Shown piece after piece: positions 6,525 to 15,783 of a DNA stretch of 39,568 nt. The notes under the pieces were generated by a model. It did no database searches. It saw nothing but the letters and a program-made list of their open reading frames with translations, and was not told the origin of the DNA. The DNA lies in the NCBI GenBank assembly GCA_903905685.1, contig CAIVHI010000319.1, positions 1 through 39,568 on the forward strand, given 5' to 3'. A program made the position numbers and the translations under genes. Numbering within the stretch: position 1 is the stretch's first letter; each line of letters opens with the position of its first letter. The stretch comes from an uncultured Bacteroidota bacterium (GTDB lineage Bacteria > Bacteroidota > Bacteroidia > Chitinophagales > Chitinophagaceae).

Positions 6525-8237
6525 ATGTCTGCAATCAACTTCAATACATCGAACCAGACCTATAGGCAACTCATGGGCAATGGGCTGCTGTTTCATGTGC
6601 CAAGGTTTCAGCGAGACTACAGCTGGACTGACGAAGAATGGGACGACCTTTGGGCGGATATCCAAGGTCTTTTTGGCGAAGACCCCGAGCCGGCGCACTA
6701 CATGGGCTACCTCGTGCTGCAATCAAAGGATAGTAAGAAGTTTGACATCATTGATGGGCAGCAACGGCTAACAACTCTAAGCATTTTCACCCTCGCGGTT
6801 TTGAAGAATTTCGATCTATTGATTGAGATGCGTATTGACCCCGAGAACAATAAAAGGCGCCAGGTACAACTTAGAGGTTCTTTCATTGGTTACCTCGACC
6901 CCGTAACGTTGATTCCGCAATCCAAACTCACGCTGAACCGCAACAATGATGCCTACTATCAAAATTACTTGGTGCCGTTGTTAAAGTCGCCCGTAAGGGG
7001 GTTGAAGTATACCGAACATCAAATGCGCAAGGCGTTCGAGTGGTTTGATCGGAAAATAAAGGAGGAGTACACGGTAAAGAAGGATGGTGCAATGCTCGCG
7101 TCCCTACTCGACCATTTGACCGACAAGCTTTTCTTCACCGTAATAACCGTAACCGACGAGTTGAATGCCTACAAGGTTTTTGAAACGCTCAACTCGAGGG
7201 GGGTAAAATTGTCGGCTACCGATTTGTTAAAGAACTACCTTTTTTCGGTGGTGCACCGCGAGGGAAACGACGGTTTGGAATTGGATAAGCTGGATGAAAG
7301 GTGGCAACAGCTGGTTGGGATTTTGGGTAGCGAGAGCTTTCCCGATTTTTTGAGGGCGCACTGGAATAGTCGCAACAAATTCGTGCGAGCTGCAAACCTC
7401 TTTAAAACCATTCGTGCCCAAGTGGCCAACCGGGGACAGGTATTCGATTTGATGCGGGCGATGGAAATGGATGCCAATACCTATGTGGCCCTCTCGAGGC
7501 CCGAAGACGACCAGTGGCATGCAGAACAGAAACGGTATGTAGAGGAGCTCTCCATGTTTCACGTGCGGCAGGTTTACCCACTATTATTGGCAGCTTATCG
7601 AAAATTTGACAACGCTGACTTTACCCGCCTGCTTAAGGCATGCAGCATCATTTCGTTCAGGTACAACGTCATAGGCAACCTACCTCCAAATGAGCAAGAA
7701 AGGTTGTACACCGGCGTGGCGGTACAAGTGCACGATGGAGTTGTTAACACGGTGAATCAGGTTTTGGGAAAGCTGAAGCCGCTGTATCCGGATGATGAAG
7801 CATTTTCTCGGCTTTTTTGCGATAAACAACTCAAAACCTCACAAGCCAGAAATAAACGCATTGTCCGGTATTTGCTATTCAAGCTTGAAAGGCGGGTTTC
7901 AGGTGGTAGCGATTACGATTACGACAGTGATGTTTTTAGTATTGAGCACGTGCTTCCGGAATCTCCAGGCCTTGGCTGGGAACAATTTGGCGATGCCGAC
8001 CATGAGGCCTTCGTTTATCGCTTGGGCAATATGACGTTGATGAAATTTAACGACAATCTGGAAATTGGGAATGCGCCCTTTGACGTTAAGAAAGTGAAGT
8101 ATGCGGAAAGCAAGTTCGAGATTACCCGCAAGATAGCTACAGACAATAGCGAATGGACAATGGCGCGCATTGCGGAGCGGCAACAATGGATGGCCAAACA
8201 GGCTACAGCAATTTGGAGAATCGCGCAGTTGGGTTAA
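6525..8237 (+). CDS. DUF262/DUF1524 two-domain protein (GmrSD-like; candidate type IV modification-dependent restriction endonuclease)
   Basis: N-terminal DUF262/ParB-like signatures FHVPRFQRDYSWTDEEWDDLWADI and DGQQRLTTL (nt 6753-6767 encode DGQQR). C-terminal DUF1524 HNH-like signatures FSIEHVLPES and YRLGNMTLMKFNDNLEIGNAPF. A spot count of line 6781 gives about 42% G+C, lower than neighbouring housekeeping genes. Confidence 0.85.
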   Translation: MSAINFNTSNQTYRQLMGNGLLFHVPRFQRDYSWTDEEWDDLWADIQGLFGEDPEPAHYMGYLVLQSKDSKKFDIIDGQQRLTTLSIFTLAVLKNFDLLIEMRIDPENNKRRQVQLRGSFIGYLDPVTLIPQSKLTLNRNNDAYYQNYLVPLLKSPVRGLKYTEHQMRKAFEWFDRKIKEEYTVKKDGAMLASLLDHLTDKLFFTVITVTDELNAYKVFETLNSRGVKLSATDLLKNYLFSVVHREGNDGLELDKLDERWQQLVGILGSESFPDFLRAHWNSRNKFVRAANLFKTIRAQVANRGQVFDLMRAMEMDANTYVALSRPEDDQWHAEQKRYVEELSMFHVRQVYPLLLAAYRKFDNADFTRLLKACSIISFRYNVIGNLPPNEQERLYTGVAVQVHDGVVNTVNQVLGKLKPLYPDDEAFSRLFCDKQLKTSQARNKRIVRYLLFKLERRVSGGSDYDYDSDVFSIEHVLPESPGLGWEQFGDADHEAFVYRLGNMTLMKFNDNLEIGNAPFDVKKVKYAESKFEITRKIATDNSEWTMARIAERQQWMAKQATAIWRIAQLG

Positions 8238-8368: not shown

Positions 8369-9151
8369 TTGTACAATGACATTTTGTATGATGAGGACTT
8401 CAACCTAGTTCCGGAGGAGTGCGGGCGGTTCCAGATTGGGGCGGGTGCCGACGCGTGGCAGGTCTTCGGCAATGGAGGCAAGATAGCGGTGAACCACAAC
8501 GGCTACCTGGCGGTGTTTTTGAGGACGGCAACGGCAGGTACGTCGATCTACATCGACCCGATGGTAATAAACCACTTTCCAGCTGGATTCGCCGCATCAA
8601 CCACTATTACCCTTACGGCTTGGCCGTGAACATGACGGCGCACGTGCCGACGGCCAACGACCCTGCCGACCTCTTCTCTTCCTGTATCAGGCCAAGAAGA
8701 AGGACAAGGCCGACGGCCTGAATCTTGACCACTTCGGTGCCCATCGGTACGACCCGCAGTGGGGCACTTCCCGAGCCTTGACGCGGACCACCAGTTTGCG
8801 AGCGGTTACACGGGCATGGGGAACCATCCGGTCTTGGTTTCGGACCCGACGGGGAATGTGGCGATTGACGATCCAAGTAAAAACATTGGTGGCGACGAAG
8901 ACGGCGGCTTTCCAGAGGATTACATTGTTGCCGGCTCCGACGGGCGGCAGGGCACGACCAGCGGCAATATGCAGGATGCCATAGGCCCGACCGGTATCGG
9001 GGGGCAAACGTGCCTTTTCTTAAGCGATGCCACCTGCGGCCTTGACGTGACGCAGGCCAACCAGAGCGCGACCAACACGGCCCCGCCCGTAAGCTGGATC
9101 AAAACAGTGGAGGTTGTGTCTACATGGGCCCTTTGTTGGGGTGGCGTATGA
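8369..9151 (+). pseudogene. Orphan, multiply frameshifted RHS/YD-repeat C-terminal core fragment with a unique C-terminal tail
   Basis: Consecutive pieces of the RHS C-terminal core are spread over different frames. ..HNGYL lies in the 8369 frame. GGVFEDGNGRY and NHYYPYGLAVNM (the YYPFGxxM motif) lie in the 8419 frame. LYQAKKKDKADGLNLDHFGAHRYDPQWG lies at 8682-8765. HFPSLDADHQFASGYTGMGNHPVLVSDPTGN lies in the 8759 frame, followed by a unique tail of about 100 aa ending at 9151. One shift coincides with the G4 run at 8761-8764. No large RHS body is present upstream. Confidence 0.6.
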
Positions 9152-9318: not shown

Positions 9319-10737
9319 CTATCCCAGCAGTTCCGGCCGCTCCAGGTATACCTTCCTTACAAATTCACCAAAAAGCGTATTGGCCCAAGCAAACCACGGG
9401 CGGGAATAGGTGGCGGCATCGTCTTTATGGAACGATTCGTGCATGAAGCCGGTGCCGGCGTGGGTGGCTTGCAGCATGTCGAGGCACTGGTGAACTTCAG
9501 ACGGCGTCTCGGCAGTGATGCCGCGCATAATGATTCCCAAGGGCCAAATTCGGTCCATACCGGCATGGGGGCCGCCAATGCCCTCGGCGGCCTTGCCTTT
9601 AAAGAAGAACGGGTTGTCTTCACTCAGCACCAGCTTGCGGGTATTGTGGTAAATGGGGTCTATGGCCATATCGGGAATGAGGTAGGGTAACGACAGCAGG
9701 GAGGGCACATTGGCATCGTCCATCAGGTTGTAGCTACCCATGCCGTTGGTTTCGTAGGCATATACCGCGCCGTAGCGCTCGGAGGGTGCCGTGGCCAGTC
9801 GGTTGAGCGCGCCGCGCACTTCGCTTTGCAGCGCCCTGATGTCGGCCAGCAGGTCGGTGGCAATATAAAGTTCGGCTACCAGCTCCTCCATTTGTTGCAG
9901 ACTGTGGCGGGCAAAGAAATTGGACGGTATAAGATAGGGGAAAATCGTGGCATCGTCGCTGGGGCGGAACATGGAGCAAATCATGCCGTTGGGGCGGACG
10001 GGGTAGCCGTAGCCATCCAATGGCACCGAGTCTGTGGCATATTCCGTCATGCGCTTAAAGCTGTAGGGCCCCTTGCCGCCCATTCGTTGCTGCTCCCTAA
10101 ATGTGCGCACTATAGTTTTGGCCATCTCCAGCCACTCGGCATCAAACGGCGAGCGGTCGGCCGTGGCTTTAAAGTAGTGGTAGGCCAGCCTGATGGGGTA
10201 GCAAAGGCTGTCTACCTCCCATTTGCGCTCGTGAATGCCCGGCTGCATGGCCGTCACGTCATTCTTCCACTCGCTTACCTTGGTAGGGTCTTTATAGAAG
10301 GCATTGGCATAAGGGTCTTTACGCACATAGGCCGACTGCCGGTTGATGACCCCCTTGATGAGCTGCTGCAACGGCTTGTCGGCCTTGCACAGCGCGATAT
10401 AGGGAAACACCTGTGCCGATGAATCGCGCAGCCACATGGCATCTATATCGCCGGTAATGACATAGGTATCGGGTCGGCCGTTTTTATTGGTGAAATCGAC
10501 TGTGGTGTCGAGCGTGTTGGGGAAGCAGTTCTCGAACAGGTAGGCCAATTCCTTGTTGCCGATGCTGTTCTTGATTTCGCGTATCAGGGCTTCAACGGCC
10601 TCGCTTTTAAATTTGCGTTGGCCGTTGGGAATGCGCACCGTAGGAAATGTTGCCGTAGCGGCCTTGGCGAACCCAGGTGCCGCCAAAATGCCGGCCGTAG
10701 CCCAAGCCGACTGCCTAATGAATCTGCGTCTATCCAT
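9319..10737 (-). CDS. GH125 family (DUF1237) exo-alpha-1,6-mannosidase-like glycoside hydrolase with a Tat-type signal
   Basis: Twin-arginine signal MDRRRFIRQSAWATAGILAAPGFAKA. It also has the ITGDIDAMWLRDSSAQVFPY motif characteristic of GH125. Start moved from 10887 to ATG 10737. Confidence 0.85.
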   Translation of the reverse strand: MDRRRFIRQSAWATAGILAAPGFAKAATATFPTVRIPNGQRKFKSEAVEALIREIKNSIGNKELAYLFENCFPNTLDTTVDFTNKNGRPDTYVITGDIDAMWLRDSSAQVFPYIALCKADKPLQQLIKGVINRQSAYVRKDPYANAFYKDPTKVSEWKNDVTAMQPGIHERKWEVDSLCYPIRLAYHYFKATADRSPFDAEWLEMAKTIVRTFREQQRMGGKGPYSFKRMTEYATDSVPLDGYGYPVRPNGMICSMFRPSDDATIFPYLIPSNFFARHSLQQMEELVAELYIATDLLADIRALQSEVRGALNRLATAPSERYGAVYAYETNGMGSYNLMDDANVPSLLSLPYLIPDMAIDPIYHNTRKLVLSEDNPFFFKGKAAEGIGGPHAGMDRIWPLGIIMRGITAETPSEVHQCLDMLQATHAGTGFMHESFHKDDAATYSRPWFAWANTLFGEFVRKVYLERPELLG

Positions 10738-10987
10738 AATGAACGTTGAAATTGCAAAGTAGCAAAAAGGGGCGAAGGACGCTGCGCTTGAGGGTGAAAG
10801 CGGAGTTAGGAGTGCGGCATGTGTGTGGCTGGTGCGTAGGGGTGAACCGGTGCTTCGCCCGTTCCGGTGATGCTGCCGCAGGTACATGGTAAAATTAACC
10901 GGGCTTCCAGCCTGGGCATAATTCCATAGCTGGACACCTTCCTTTTAAGGCTGGTGACGATGTCTCCAGGTAGACACAAATTCCCCA

Positions 10988-11494
10988 CTACTCCAACGTT
11001 ATTTCCGCCTCAAACTGCAAATGCATTCTGTACTGGCGCTTGAAAATCTCCCTTATCTCTTTGTCAGACCCGTGAAAGTGGGGAGAGGGATGCTTGGAAT
11101 TTGCGACGATTGCTTTCCTTTTTTTGAAGCCGAAATAATATTCAGGTATTTCCAAAAGCATCCGCTTTACTGTGGCTTCTATTTGCCCCAGTCCTTCAGA
11201 TTTCCAATCCGCCCGCTTGGTCTTCAATTCCACAAACACCAGCCTATCCTCATATTGTAACATGGCGTCGCACCTGCTTTCCATCTCGCCGTTATCCCTG
11301 CAAATGTCGATACAGTTATCTATCGCGGTAAATTGAATGGTCTTCGGCGGCGAGGCGTTAACAACGGTCGCAATCCATTTTTCGCTATGGTCAATATTCA
11401 AGAATGCCGGACTTTTGTCGTCCCTATCACAAATGCCGAACCGCATTTCACTCGTAGTACACCTACATTCCGATTGAAAGAAATCAACCTTCAT
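10988..11494 (-). CDS. 168-aa Cys-rich protein with a PD-(D/E)xK nuclease-like core; partner of the upstream ATPase
   Basis: The ATG at 11494-11492 overlaps the ATPase stop (TGA 11486-11484) by 11 nt. The core hairpin is ..SRC-D76-AMLQYEDRLVFV-E89-L-K91-TKR, and nt 11230-11222 encode ELK. It is preceded by FTAID59NCID63IC and six Cys (C10, C12, C22, C61, C65, C75). I recognise no other family signature. Confidence 0.6.
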   Translation of the reverse strand: MKVDFFQSECRCTTSEMRFGICDRDDKSPAFLNIDHSEKWIATVVNASPPKTIQFTAIDNCIDICRDNGEMESRCDAMLQYEDRLVFVELKTKRADWKSEGLGQIEATVKRMLLEIPEYYFGFKKRKAIVANSKHPSPHFHGSDKEIREIFKRQYRMHLQFEAEITLE

Positions 11495-12704
11495 TTTCTT
11501 CTTGAATTTCTAAGAGTTGGTCATAAAGTTGGTTGGTATCGGCGAGCGATTGGTTCAGGTAATTTTTATCCGACGGAATTCCGTAATAGTCGGGGAGTTT
11601 CCTGATAGTCCCACCTTTTTCGTCAAATTCATAAATCACTACGTCATCAGGGTTCGTCATAGACATCGGTGCCACAATGGCATCCAACTTTTCTCGGAGT
11701 AGGTCTGATTTCAGTTCCCCATTTACCTGAAAAGCCTTGATCGACAAGGTGAGGTAGTCTATCATATAGGGACTATGCGTTGTCACCACCAACTGGTTCC
11801 AGGGCAGCAAGTGGTTGAACTGTAGCAAGCTGTACAGTATTTCCTTTTGGGAGGTCGGAAATAGGTTCTGTTCCGGTTCTTCCACGATATTGACGAAGCG
11901 TTTACTGTGGTATTTGGAATAAATCAAGGCTTTCCGTTGATTCCGTTCTTGCTTCGAAAGCCCGGAATCCAAATCGACCCTATCGATTTCCTGTTCCCGT
12001 CTAATCCGATATTCGGGCGATAATTCGGCTAGTTCGGGCACATGCTCAAAATGTACTTTCATAGCCAAATATCTGGTCACAAGGTAAAGGGGCACCAAGG
12101 ACTGGAACCCGCTGGAAGCAGTCAGCAAACTCAGATTCTTAAAGTCGCTGCCCGACAGGAAGGAACGTGAATCTTTATACTCATAAACCGTATTGCCAAG
12201 CGGCAATTCCAAAGCAAGTCCGTTCAAGCCATTTTGCGCCCTAATCAGCTCACGTGCAAAGGTGTCGAGCGGCCCAGGGAGGCCGGAAATGCCGAAGGAT
12301 TCCTTTATGGTGCTCAGGAAATTCCTTTCCGAAGGCACATACATTATTTTGGGCACGAGATAATCATGCCCGTCCGACTCCTTGGCATAATACCCTAATG
12401 CCTCACTGGCGCTGATAAAATATTTCTCTCCCCAATATTCAATAACGGTATCTTTTTTCCAATACTCCCTAATACCCTGCCATTCCAATTTATTTAGAAA
12501 GTCTTCTACATAAGTAATTTTAAAATCCCCCCTGTTTAACGCCTTCTCCATCCAAATAAACATCGAAATCAGCTTAGCCACGGTACTCTTGCCGCTGCCT
12601 TGATTGCCAATGAAGACGGTCACCTTTTTGATGTCGAGCCAGCCGCCGTTCTCCAAACAGCCTTCCTTGATGGGGCCGAAATTCTTGATTTTGATCTTGC
12701 TCAT
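11484..12704 (-). CDS. ABC/SMC-like ATPase of the AAA_15/AAA_21 type
   Basis: Walker A G33-NQGSGKST-41 follows an IKIKNFGPIK N-terminus. Also present are the signature-like ASSGFQSL, the Walker B/D-loop FVNIVEEPEQNLFP and the H-loop TTHSPYMI. Length is 406 aa. Spot counts of lines 11881, 12001 and 12421 give about 37-45% G+C, against about 57% for line 13741 in the GH92 gene. Confidence 0.85.
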   Translation of the reverse strand: MSKIKIKNFGPIKEGCLENGGWLDIKKVTVFIGNQGSGKSTVAKLISMFIWMEKALNRGDFKITYVEDFLNKLEWQGIREYWKKDTVIEYWGEKYFISASEALGYYAKESDGHDYLVPKIMYVPSERNFLSTIKESFGISGLPGPLDTFARELIRAQNGLNGLALELPLGNTVYEYKDSRSFLSGSDFKNLSLLTASSGFQSLVPLYLVTRYLAMKVHFEHVPELAELSPEYRIRREQEIDRVDLDSGLSKQERNQRKALIYSKYHSKRFVNIVEEPEQNLFPTSQKEILYSLLQFNHLLPWNQLVVTTHSPYMIDYLTLSIKAFQVNGELKSDLLREKLDAIVAPMSMTNPDDVVIYEFDEKGGTIRKLPDYYGIPSDKNYLNQSLADTNQLYDQLLEIQEENEG

Positions 12705-12901
12705 TGCCGGTCAAATTTACCGCTTTAGCCAAATATGCTCCCCAATAAATTCTTGGCCACATTCCGCGCCGCCTGGCTTTGGGTCATTTCAGACGATGCG
12801 AAAATTTGCCATGCGAACCCTGGGGCAAAAAAGTAGACAATACACTAAATATATTTTCGGCAGTCAGTTACTGCCGAATTGAAAGGCATTTTCTCATGCT
12901 T

Positions 12902-12930
12902 CAAACCGGGGTTTAACAAACCCCGGTTTG
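12902..12930. other. Perfect 10-bp stem-loop in the non-coding spacer upstream of the ATPase gene
   Basis: caaaccgggg (12902-12911) / ccccggtttg (12921-12930) with a 9-nt loop. A second 8-bp hairpin, ttcggcag/ctgccgaa, lies at 12866-12888. Neither has a clear U-tract, so the function is unknown. Confidence 0.45.
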
Positions 12931-13536
12931 GCGGAACATCGACTAAATTTTTATACCCACCAATTTGCAGCTACCTGCGCAAAAATTGCCCACCTCCCAA
13001 TTGCACAAACACCGCTTGCGCAATTGCCAACCCACGCCATTAGCGGGTGGCCATTATACGCCAACCCATTTCTCAACTAACCTCGTAGTTTTGTAAAACC
13101 CCACTACCTACGAAAAACGGGCGTGACCAGTGCACCCTGCCGACAAACTAAATAGGACAATATCACAGGCAGGGCGATAAAAATGGCATCAATAAATCCC
13201 GGACACTCTAACAAAGCAATACGGATGAGCGAAGCGGTAATGAACAGCCTGCCTGAAAAGCAATTTTTTACTGAGCTTGCGGTGCTCATTAATGAAAGTA
13301 GCAAATGAGTAGCATAAACGGTCAATTCAACACTAACACTGTTGTGTTGGAAAATCGGCACCGGAATAAATCGGGATAGCCTAAAAAGTGGAAGGGCGGA
13401 GTATGGTAAAAGATTGTCGTTTTGTAGACACGGCTGCACTCCCTATTTTCCCCCACTATAGGAAATTTCACAAGGCTATGGATATATTTGTAGATGCATG
13501 GCCACACTCCGTGCCCGCTTGAAAATCGATAGCCGA

Positions 13537-15783
13537 ATGAAACCATTGAAAAAGCTCCTTTATGCCGCCACTTTTTTCATCATTTGTTCGTTTGCCGTGG
13601 GCAAGGCAGAGCACTTGGTGCGCAATGTAAATCCGTTCATTGGCACGGGCGGACATGGGCATTGCTACCCGGGTGCTACGGTGCCGTTTGGGATGGTGCA
13701 AATAAGTCCGGACAACGGCACCGAGGGTTGGGACTGGTGCAGCGGCTACAACTATGGCGATTCCATGATAGCCGGCTTCAGCCATATGCACCTCAGCGGC
13801 ACGGGGGTGGGCGAGTGGTGCGACATATCGGTGATGCCCAATCCCGGGCTCATTCCCGATACGGGCAAGTTTTTCCGCGTCAAGTTCAGCCATGAAAACG
13901 AGGTGGCATTTCCCGGCTACTACAGCGTCATCATGAACAACGGCGTGCAGGCATCGTTCACGGCCACCGAGCGTTGCGCGTTCCATAAGTATTTCTTTCC
14001 CGTAGCCTCCACGCCCGTCATCAAGTTCAACTTGGGCTTCAGCATCAACTACGACAGCACTACCGAGACCTACTTCACCAAGGTAGACGACAGCACCTTT
14101 ATGGGCTATCGCTATTCCACCGGCTGGGCCAAAGCACAGCGGGTCTACTTCGCCGTCAAGACGTCCGAACCCATAGTGAAAGCCTTCATTTACGATGAAG
14201 GTACTCCCGCCATCAACAACTCCATGAGGGGGCATTATGTGAAGAGCCAATTGGTTTTCAAAGACTTGCAGGGTAAACCTTTGATGATGAAGGTCGCGCT
14301 GTCTACGGTGAGTCCGCAACGGGCATTGGTGACCCTGAAAGAAATTTCGGATTGGGGGTCGTTCGATGAAGTTCGAAAGACGGCTGAAAACGCTTGGGAA
14401 AAGGAGATGTCCAAAATTACCGTAAAAGGCAGCGACGACCGCTTGAAGCGCATCTTCTACACCGCCCTCTACCACACATGCATGGCGCCGGTGCTTTACT
14501 CGGATGCCGACGGGGTGTATAAAAACGCCAACGACAGCACCTTCAAAACCGCATCGGGCCAACGATATACTGTGTTCTCGCTGTGGGACACCTTCCGCGG
14601 CCTCAATCCGCTGTTCACCCTCACCCAAGGCCGCCGCAACACCGATATCCTCAACAGTATGCTGGCATTCTGCAATGAAAACGGCGAACTGCCCGTTTGG
14701 GACTTGAGCACTTGGGAGACGGGCTGCATGAGCGGCTACCACGCAGTGCCCGTACTGGCCGATGCCGTGCTTAAAAGCACGCCCGGCCTCGACCCCGAGA
14801 AAGCCTATGCGGCCATGAAAATCAGCGCATTCCAAAAAATTCGCGGCACGCAGGACTACATCAAGTATGGCTACCTGCCCCAAGACAAGGGCGGCTATAG
14901 CGTAACCATCACTTTGGAATATGCCTACGACGACTGGTGCATTGCCCAAGTGGCCAAGAAGTTGGGCTATCGCGACGACTATGAAATGTTCATGAAGCGC
15001 TCTGCAGCCTACCGCCTGCTGTTCGATAGGAAGACCGGCTTCATCCGTGCCAAGAATGCCGATGGTAAGTTTACAGAGCCCTTCAACCCCTATTTCTCGT
15101 CGGTAGACGAGAGCAAGGCCATGTACGAGGAAGGCAATGCTTGGCAATACACCTTCTTCGTGCCCCACGATGTGCAGGGGTTGGCGCGCATGATGGGTGG
15201 TAAGGACAAATTCATCGAGAAGCTCGACTCCCTGTTTACCGTGCCCTCGCAAGCTGAGGGCGAGCAGAGCCCGCCCGACATCAGCGGGCTGATAGGCCAG
15301 TATGCGCACGGCAACGAGCCCAGCCACCACATTGCCTACCTCTACAGCTTTATAGGTGCCCCTTGGAAAACGCAGGAAAAAATCCGCATGATAGTGGATT
15401 CCATGTATCACGACAATCCGCAGGCGGGCTATGCCGGCAATGAAGATTGTGGGCAAATGAGCGCATGGGCGGTTTGGAGCATGATGGGCTTTTATCCTGC
15501 AAATCCGGCCAGTGGCGAGTATGTATTCGGCACCCCCATGTTCGAGGAAATCTCCATCAATCTGGGTAATGGCCGCACCTTCAAGGTGACGGCTACGAAT
15601 TTCGGTAAAAACAAACCCTACATCAAGAGCGTGAAGCTGAATGGGATGCCCTACACCAAATCCTACATCCGTCATGCCGACATGGTGACCGGGGGCAAGT
15701 TGGAATTCGAAATGAGCGACAAGCCCAACAAGGCGTTTGGCGCCAAGCCCGAAGATTGGCCGTATTCGGCATCGGCACTGTAG
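13537..15783 (+). CDS. GH92 family alpha-mannosidase
   Basis: Signal peptide MKPLKKLLYAATFFIICSFAVGKA. GH92 hallmark NPFIGTGGHGHCYPGATVPFGMVQISPDN, plus HGNEPSHHIAYLY and AGNEDCGQMSAWAVW. Start moved from 13498 to ATG 13537. Confidence 0.9.
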   Translation: MKPLKKLLYAATFFIICSFAVGKAEHLVRNVNPFIGTGGHGHCYPGATVPFGMVQISPDNGTEGWDWCSGYNYGDSMIAGFSHMHLSGTGVGEWCDISVMPNPGLIPDTGKFFRVKFSHENEVAFPGYYSVIMNNGVQASFTATERCAFHKYFFPVASTPVIKFNLGFSINYDSTTETYFTKVDDSTFMGYRYSTGWAKAQRVYFAVKTSEPIVKAFIYDEGTPAINNSMRGHYVKSQLVFKDLQGKPLMMKVALSTVSPQRALVTLKEISDWGSFDEVRKTAENAWEKEMSKITVKGSDDRLKRIFYTALYHTCMAPVLYSDADGVYKNANDSTFKTASGQRYTVFSLWDTFRGLNPLFTLTQGRRNTDILNSMLAFCNENGELPVWDLSTWETGCMSGYHAVPVLADAVLKSTPGLDPEKAYAAMKISAFQKIRGTQDYIKYGYLPQDKGGYSVTITLEYAYDDWCIAQVAKKLGYRDDYEMFMKRSAAYRLLFDRKTGFIRAKNADGKFTEPFNPYFSSVDESKAMYEEGNAWQYTFFVPHDVQGLARMMGGKDKFIEKLDSLFTVPSQAEGEQSPPDISGLIGQYAHGNEPSHHIAYLYSFIGAPWKTQEKIRMIVDSMYHDNPQAGYAGNEDCGQMSAWAVWSMMGFYPANPASGEYVFGTPMFEEISINLGNGRTFKVTATNFGKNKPYIKSVKLNGMPYTKSYIRHADMVTGGKLEFEMSDKPNKAFGAKPEDWPYSASAL

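Follow-up and report, generated by a model that had tools for sequence, protein, structure and literature searches.

The window analysed here, 39,568 nucleotides of contig CAIVHI010000319.1 (positions 1 to 39,568) from an uncultured Chitinophagaceae bacterium of the Bacteroidota (assembly GCA_903905685.1), carries on its minus strand two overlapping open reading frames (ORFs) that encode an ATPase (protein A) and a small protein (protein B). The question that this locus raises is whether the pair is an undescribed anti-phage module, as the initial annotation proposed, a described one, or a pair of genes that serves some purpose other than phage immunity. Judged by profile matches, the locus adds a new copy to those of the catalogued candidate PDC-M29 and is not an undescribed system. 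Protein A matches the PDC-M29A model of PADLOC-DB v2 with an E value of 1.3e-140 and 467 bits, its residues 1-403 aligning with positions 1-409 of a profile of 410. Protein B matches the PDC-M29B model PDLC04563 at 4.3e-51, with residues 1-167 on profile positions 1-163 of 164, and the second PDC-M29B model, PDLC04564, at 4.4e-27. The two genes are adjacent and co-oriented, A then B, which is the PDC-M29 layout. The gene pair seen by the initial annotation is real, with both components full-length, but already catalogued.

PDC stands for phage defence candidate, a label covering 145 single- or multi-gene predictions that were derived from genes lying within BREX, DISARM and type I restriction-modification (RM) systems, entered into PADLOC and described by their authors as untested (Payne et al., bioRxiv 10.1101/2024.01.29.577857). 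Table S8 of that study gives CAS_00123 as FAM_00005>>FAM_02872, with the number 110 and the remark 'Assign as candidate PDC-M29', and the authors state that candidates of the embedded kind show less association with other defence systems (10.1101/2024.01.29.577857). The window pair consists of the same two proteins in the same order and on the same strand, and we found no architectural difference between the two. The window copy differs from the published definition in its surroundings: it is flanked by glycoside hydrolase (GH) genes and does not lie inside an RM, BREX or DISARM system.

Gene A (11484..12704, minus strand) encodes 406 aa and is supported by its ORF, by Pfam AAA_15 and AAA_21 and by PDC-M29A; gene B (10988..11494, minus strand) encodes 168 aa and is supported by its ORF and by PDC-M29B. 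Both begin with ATG, and full-length homologues of both show that neither reading frame is due to chance. The TGA stop of A at 11486-11484 lies inside the start region of B, whose ATG is at 11494-11492, and the resulting 11-nt overlap (11484..11494, minus strand, ..GAAAATGAAGGTTGA..) points to translational coupling. The coordinates and codons are as the initial annotation had them, and its proposal of one transcript with coupled translation agrees with the conservation of the overlap: in 81 of 87 loci the end of A runs into the beginning of B, and 65 of the 87 have the 4-nt ATGA type. Taken together, these data support the view that A and B form one operon whose translation is probably coupled.

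The pairing itself is conserved wherever we could look for it. When 185,579 species genomes were scanned with the B motif, 129 loci were confirmed, of which 80 were kept; these and the loci found earlier include 85 with room 5' of B, which made them testable. In all 85, a homologue of A (36-52% identity) lies directly 5' of B on the same strand, so that the expectation that the two genes would remain neighbours in other genomes was borne out. A search begun from A homologues led to the same arrangement, with a 167-aa B gene found 3' of A. The pairwise distances of A and B are correlated (Mantel r 0.475), and none of 2000 permutations reached so high a value. The hosts are mostly Bacteroidota and also include Chlorobiaceae, Nostocales, Desulfosporosinus, Deltaproteobacteria, Thioploca and Limnohabitans. 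The flanking genes change from locus to locus; the cassette is mobile.

Protein A is the better understood of the two. It scores above the Pfam cutoffs for both families named in the initial annotation, AAA_15 (E 5.8e-15, 56.2 bits, cutoff 32.1) and AAA_21 (E 7.2e-9, 36.6 bits, cutoff 27), and every motif quoted there, including K39, is present at the stated residues. The Walker A or P-loop motif, GNQGSGKST (G33 to T41, 12582..12608, minus strand), was located by reading the sequence; it is followed by the signature ASSGFQS (196-202), which contains S-G-x-Q, by the Walker B motif EEPEQNLFP with its acidic pair (275-283) and by the H-loop THSPYM (309-314). By this motif set A is an ABC-type ATPase. 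Database homologues are full-length, with E values down to 1e-129. Across 40 database and 79 genomic homologues most motif residues are invariant or nearly so, including K39, S198, G199, E275, E276, E278, H310, S311 and P312, with the core residues K39, S198, G199, E275, E276 and H310 invariant; within Walker A, the residues G33, G36, G38, K39 and S40 are invariant in the 40 homologues, and G33, Q35, G38, K39 and S40 in the 79 pairs.

Structure comparison places A among defence ATPases. The AlphaFold2 model has a pLDDT score (predicted local distance difference test) of 88.9, and a Foldseek search of it against the PDB returned 89 chains at E<=1e-3. The best is 8eea_A, the PtuA subunit of Septu (E 2.8e-9), and the next are retron I-A, Ec78 and Ec83 PtuA and the retron Eco8 ATPase, with template-modelling (TM) scores of 0.29-0.44. 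As modelled, A is a PtuA-like ABC ATPase with different inserts. One further segment of the protein stands out: within residues 373-384, Y-Y-G-I-P-S-D-K-N-Y-L-N (window 11553-11588, minus strand), G375, P377, D379, N381, L383 and N384 are invariant. Yet this segment falls in the longest low-confidence stretch of the model, residues 374-386, with pLDDT below 50. The 373-384 loop is a candidate protein-protein interface, at which B or a second A subunit may dock.

Protein B is harder to place. It has no family match in Pfam or NCBIfam, and it belongs to a sizeable family of its own: database homologues are full-length with E values down to 1e-77, and the family comprises at least 878 representative clusters at 50% identity (E<=1e-3). 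All of the best 150 listed stand alone, at lengths of 101-186 aa, and none is a fusion. E89, K91 and D59 occur in 79 of 79 paired homologues, and position 76 is D in 75 of them and E in 4. In a set of 70 divergent members D23, N46, E89, K91 and Q104 are invariant, and D59, C75, D76, L90 and N132 are conserved in at least 90%. Conservation and the strands of the model together define a putative catalytic hairpin, D76 with E89-L-K91 (11222..11269, minus strand). The initial annotation had described B as Cys-rich and marked by D59, D63, D76, E89 and K91. The residues and the six cysteines are indeed found in the window copy; richness in cysteine is not a family trait, however, and D63 is variable. 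Only C10, C61 and C75 are kept among close relatives, and only C75 reaches 90% in the 70 divergent members. A cysteine metal cluster was considered as a family feature and discarded, C10 and C61 not being universal and C12, C22 and C65 being variable.

An order of β-β-β-α-β with D and (D/E)xK on adjacent strands is the canonical core of PD-(D/E)xK nucleases. The AlphaFold2 model of B (pLDDT 94.8) has strands at 53-57, 77-81 and 84-91, a helix at 97-115 and a strand at 125-132; D76 lies just ahead of strand 77-81, and E89-x-K91 closes strand 84-91. An N-terminal beta-rich region takes the place of the usual first helix of the core. When the 70 divergent members were scanned singly against Pfam, sub-threshold matches fell to PDDEXK_9 (nine members, best E 1.5e-4), NERD (six), SduA_C (five), HSDR_N_2 (four), NucS_C (three), Hjc (one) and HSDR_N (one). 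These seven models of the PD-(D/E)xK superfamily account for 29 sub-threshold matches, and most of the families that recurred belong to this superfamily, most others being singletons. One homologue is annotated in IMG as 'Holliday junction resolvase-like predicted endonuclease'. Foldseek gave Nt.BspD6I as the best nuclease match of the B model (probability 0.85, E 0.09, TM 0.34), with other weak matches to Can2, RecU, R2 endonuclease, OkrAI, a phage 'restriction endonuclease', NERD and PD-(D/E)XK entries; this scatter of PD-(D/E)xK nucleases among weak matches of a predicted structure is suggestive only. Alignment of the B profile with hhalign reached a probability of 0.1, against templates that were two-sequence alignments (HsdR N-termini and YhcG-like proteins) and thus too shallow. 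Because the modelled topology, the conserved D...ExK motif and the recurrent sub-threshold family matches agree, the best reading, short of proof, is that B is a divergent PD-(D/E)xK-fold nuclease and the predicted effector of the pair.

An ABC ATPase with a small nuclease-like partner follows the logic of Septu and PARIS, a likeness that the initial annotation had rightly pointed out. The closest solved structures to A are the PtuA chains of Septu and of the type I-A retrons (Ec78/Eco7 and Ec83), many of them matched with a probability of 1.0, though at TM-scores of only 0.41-0.44, and these systems are two-gene operons in which the ATPase precedes the nuclease, as in the window pair. In Septu and the retrons the ATPase oligomer controls its nuclease. 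PtuA carries the PtuB nuclease in Septu and in retron-Eco7, and the latter degrades tRNA-Tyr on infection (PMC12673091, PMC12819146). However, PtuB is an HNH nuclease, whereas B of the window has no HNH match in Pfam and no match to a PtuB model in PADLOC, where the PDC-M29B models are the only ones that it matches at E<=1. Protein A, for its part, reaches 29 bits with the PtuA model of NCBIfam (cutoff 500), and its matches to the PADLOC PtuA models are partial (2.8e-12). HEC-02, which combines an ABC ATPase with a NERD nuclease, is experimentally active and requires both genes. It follows the same logic of an ABC ATPase with a separate nuclease of the PD-(D/E)xK superfamily, and NERD is one of the models weakly matched by B members (6 of the 70). 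However, A matches HEC-02A weakly and in its N-terminal part (E 3.1e-8), and B matches no HEC-02B model at E<=1; it is much smaller and belongs to a different family.

PARIS offers the clearest precedent for how such a pair could be regulated: six AriA subunits sequester three AriB subunits, and ATP-dependent detection of a viral protein frees AriB, which cleaves tRNA-Lys. Among the PADLOC matches of A, AriA ranks second (2e-17), but it is confined to residues 1-92, the P-loop region. The PARIS effector is a TOPRIM/DUF4435 protein (AriB), whereas B gives no AriB or TOPRIM match. In addition, phages or satellites often carry PARIS, but the PDC-M29 cassette is absent from the viral collections searched. 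As for Gabija and OLD, A (406 aa) lacks a TOPRIM domain, its GajA and Old matches are confined to the ATPase motifs, and the cassette has no helicase gene. The pair belongs to none of Septu, PARIS, HEC-02 and Gabija, because the partner protein fails to correspond in each of them.

The genomic context of some copies fits a role in defence. The cassette lies within type I RM operons in two loci with the order hsdM-hsdS-x-[A-B]-hsdR (L021 and L052). In a third locus a Septu PtuA gene is found 5' of the cassette and the hsdR gene of a type I RM system immediately 3' of it (L025:5641-13480). In Prosthecochloris vibrioformis DSM 260, DSR2 is encoded directly 5' of the cassette (L082:3885-10486). 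Two further copies lie in islands with restriction-like genes: one (L003) has an NgoFVII/PLD restriction-like gene together with an integrase and an HD-CE/HATPase protein, and the other (L005) has several nuclease and helicase genes. We also observed that the three RM-associated loci L021, L025 and L052 have a further small ORF, of 146-234 aa, just 5' of A.

Based on these data, we consider it probable that the window pair is a copy of the PDC-M29 cassette in which the ATPase is the sensor and B the nuclease effector of an anti-phage system. By analogy with Septu PtuAB, PARIS AriAB and HEC-02, A would oligomerise, bind B and keep the nuclease silent in uninfected cells. A phage cue, perhaps a phage protein, abnormal DNA or falling nucleotide levels, would then alter the nucleotide state or the assembly of A, and B would be released or activated. 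The active nuclease would cut DNA of the phage or of the host, or else a host tRNA, and so stop the infection, perhaps with the loss of the cell. In this scheme complex formation, trigger and substrate, as well as the anti-phage phenotype, are all predicted from the better-studied systems.

A more specific version of this proposal, to which we would give slightly less than an even chance, is that PDC-M29 is a working system in which a PtuA-like ATPase controls an unclassified family of PD-(D/E)xK nucleases of about 165 aa. Such a system would be Septu-like with the HNH effector replaced, would use the invariant GIPSDKNYLN loop of A as a docking or release switch and would have a new substrate and a new trigger. 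If tested and active, PDC-M29 would add an effector type to the ABC-ATPase immunity represented by Septu, PARIS, Gabija and HEC-02. A small nuclease family without a Pfam model, found mainly in Bacteroidota, would gain a function as well; the defence systems of that phylum are much less studied than those of E. coli. The gain would be incremental, since the family has been catalogued before and its architecture is of a familiar kind. The locus offers several handles: intact and naturally broken alleles of B in two sister strains, the conserved candidate catalytic set D23, D59, D76, E89, K91 and Q104, and an invariant ATPase loop that the model leaves disordered.

Several results weigh against an anti-phage ATPase-nuclease pair. 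Some concern the fold of B: no significant match establishes a nuclease, whether in Pfam (where the best member reaches 1.5e-4), in the PDB or by Foldseek. Searches of the PDB with two B-family profiles returned nothing relevant, and Foldseek of the B model against the PDB and BFVD gave no match at E<=1e-3, with TM-scores all at or below 0.40. The 'textbook' PD-(D/E)xK fold of the initial annotation thus holds for the conserved D...ExK hairpin and for a fitting topology, but not for a recognisable match to known members. Other points concern function. The A-B interaction, the trigger and the substrate set out above are proposed purely by analogy. The literature searched yielded no experimental defence evidence on the PDC-M29 family, no occurrence of the name PDC-M29 in a main text and no tested PDC-M system; a later study of eight other HEC and PDC candidates, of which 4 of 8 protected, did not have M29 among them. 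In phage records and IMG/VR contigs we found no B, and among plasmids a single distant copy, so that the carriage on mobile elements known for PARIS is lacking. Still others concern context: of 123 nearest-neighbour ORFs at 31 loci only a handful match RM or defence models and most are metabolic, and in three loci (L001, L088 and L090) the cassette is solitary, in line with what the authors of the catalogue state of embedded candidates. The proposed association with defence islands is accordingly true of some copies, those in type I RM systems or beside DSR2 or Septu, but many others stand alone among housekeeping genes.

Two candidates raised along the way were set aside. The only profile matches of B in the PDB, ribosomal protein eL13 (E 0.15) and eIF3b (E 1.1), were taken as chance, and the idea of a phage- or satellite-borne cassette was dropped, no phage or viral copy of B having been found.

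A natural variant of the locus bears on what B does. The closest public contig (L087; ENA ERZ19026132, scaffold_788) has the same synteny as the window and is distinct from it. Its gene A differs by 2 synonymous single-nucleotide polymorphisms (SNPs) and encodes an identical protein, and the 793-bp region upstream of A is identical. Its gene B (compared over 11200-11700 of that contig) carries a 29-nt deletion, corresponding to window positions 11410-11438, together with 6 SNPs and 4 amino-acid changes. The deletion takes out the surroundings of the invariant D23 and causes a frameshift; the putative nuclease gene is a pseudogene there, while the ATPase is preserved. Selective loss of B is as expected for a costly or toxic nuclease, a single case as it stands.

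Such a loss would also be expected of an addiction or stabilisation module resembling toxin-antitoxin (TA) systems, in which B would be a toxic nuclease and A its ATP-dependent neutraliser, and whose main role would be the retention of itself or of the surrounding DNA rather than immunity to phage. This alternative, which we regard as unlikely, draws further support from the conserved order of neutraliser then toxin with translational coupling and from the many copies that are solitary in housekeeping neighbourhoods; Pfam, moreover, labels AAA_21 a 'putative AbiEii toxin, Type IV TA system' domain. However, the repeated embedding in type I RM operons or beside DSR2 or Septu fits immunity better, and plasmids and phages, on which addiction modules do well, almost never carry the cassette. 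TA and abortive-infection systems grade into each other, so that an addiction module overlaps with the anti-phage pair that we prefer.

The broken B of the sister strain could alternatively mean that the cassette is real but decaying, a non-functional remnant of a horizontally acquired element in the host lineage of the window. The neighbouring RHS core is degraded as well, and the 793-bp upstream region matches no other locus. Elsewhere in the family, a Bacteroidales metagenome-assembled genome (L060:8748-10348) has another apparently decayed copy, with A split over two frames (a 311-aa fragment) and B matched only over residues 5-120. In the window, however, both ORFs are intact and full-length with every family-invariant residue present, and the A genes of the two strains differ by only 2 synonymous changes, which makes a dead remnant quite improbable.

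ABC- and SMC-type ATPases also work with nucleases in repair, and several copies do lie among core metabolic genes, but a housekeeping DNA repair or recombination pair, comparable to SbcCD, RecN or OLD-like ATPase-nuclease pairs and with no role in conflict, is very hard to reconcile with a patchy distribution (129 matches among 185,579 species genomes with the pattern used), flanking genes that differ at every locus, an atypical G+C content, absence from all 80 GH125 loci of relatives, the loss of B in a sister strain, the embedding of some copies in RM systems and closest ATPase structures that are all defence proteins.

How the anti-phage candidate came to lie where it does can be read in part from its surroundings. 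As the initial annotation noted, it is wedged between two alpha-mannosidase genes, identified by family matches as GH125 (9319-10887) and GH92 (13498-15783). The G+C content is 45-46% over 11001-13500 and 54-59% in flanking 500-nt windows; the contrast is genuine, but the initial figures of 37-47% against 57-65% had overstated it. In a distant relative of about 61% identity (L167), the GH92 and GH125 genes are divergent and 82 nt apart with no cassette between them, whereas they are 2.6 kb apart in the window. Because the two genes are adjacent there without the cassette, we infer that it was inserted between them. None of 80 GH125 loci from metagenomes has A, B or GmrSD, the closest GH125 relatives being only 54-67% identical. 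The atypical G+C content and this insertion support the horizontal acquisition proposed at the outset. Short direct repeats around the cassette are probably due to chance.

The intergenic region 5' of A (12705..13497, minus strand), unusually long at 793 bp and shared divergently with GH92, is low in G+C (45%) and has no coding similarity. Within it are a perfect 13-nt palindrome whose loop is 3 nt (12902-12930), a 9-bp stem-loop (12856-12878) and, 7 nt ahead of the ATG of A, a TAAATTTG box (12719-12712). Read against the Bacteroidota -7 consensus TAnnTTTG, this box suggests that the region presumably carries the promoter of the module. Comparison with other loci showed no similarity, Rfam and tRNA scans gave no match, and sigma-70 promoter and terminator scans of the region performed no better than shuffled background.

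The start of B deserves a comment of its own. Residues 1-23 of the protein are conserved (M1, F5, C10, F19, G20 and D23), and because this N-terminus and the overlap with A are kept in homologues, we take the 168-aa reading from the upstream ATG as the true one. Automatic gene callers start B at internal codons, giving 152 aa in one record (P0001) and 144 aa in the sister contig (L087), and public annotations of the family may be truncated at the start. An exact-sequence look-up of the window B protein returned no record, because the public sister contig holds the deleted allele and gene callers chose other starts.

Two other features of the neighbourhood had been placed within 3 kb of the pair. 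The first is a GmrSD gene (6525-8237, plus strand; GmrSD_N and GmrSD_C), a family match that also scores against HEC-06 of PADLOC at 7e-233 over residues 1-567; the protein is full-length. Anti-phage protection by the HEC-06 family has been shown experimentally (Payne et al.). The GmrSD gene is thus a second gene for defence near the cassette, at a distance of 2.75 kb and with the RHS remnant and the GH125 gene in between. The second, a degraded RHS-associated core (about 8480-9151, plus strand, in three reading frames), was confirmed only in part: with the three frames stitched together, TIGR03696 is matched across the whole profile at 28.1 bits (E 2e-6), below its cutoff of 32.5. The remnant reads ..YYPYGL.., ..FGAHRYDPQWG.. 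and ..GNHPVLVSDPTGN.., with two frameshifts and a variable tail of about 90 aa, and looks like an orphan toxin tip. Finally, the minus strand at 13468-15675 has a 735-aa ORF that is antisense to GH92 and most probably no gene but a shadow ORF of the G+C-rich coding strand.

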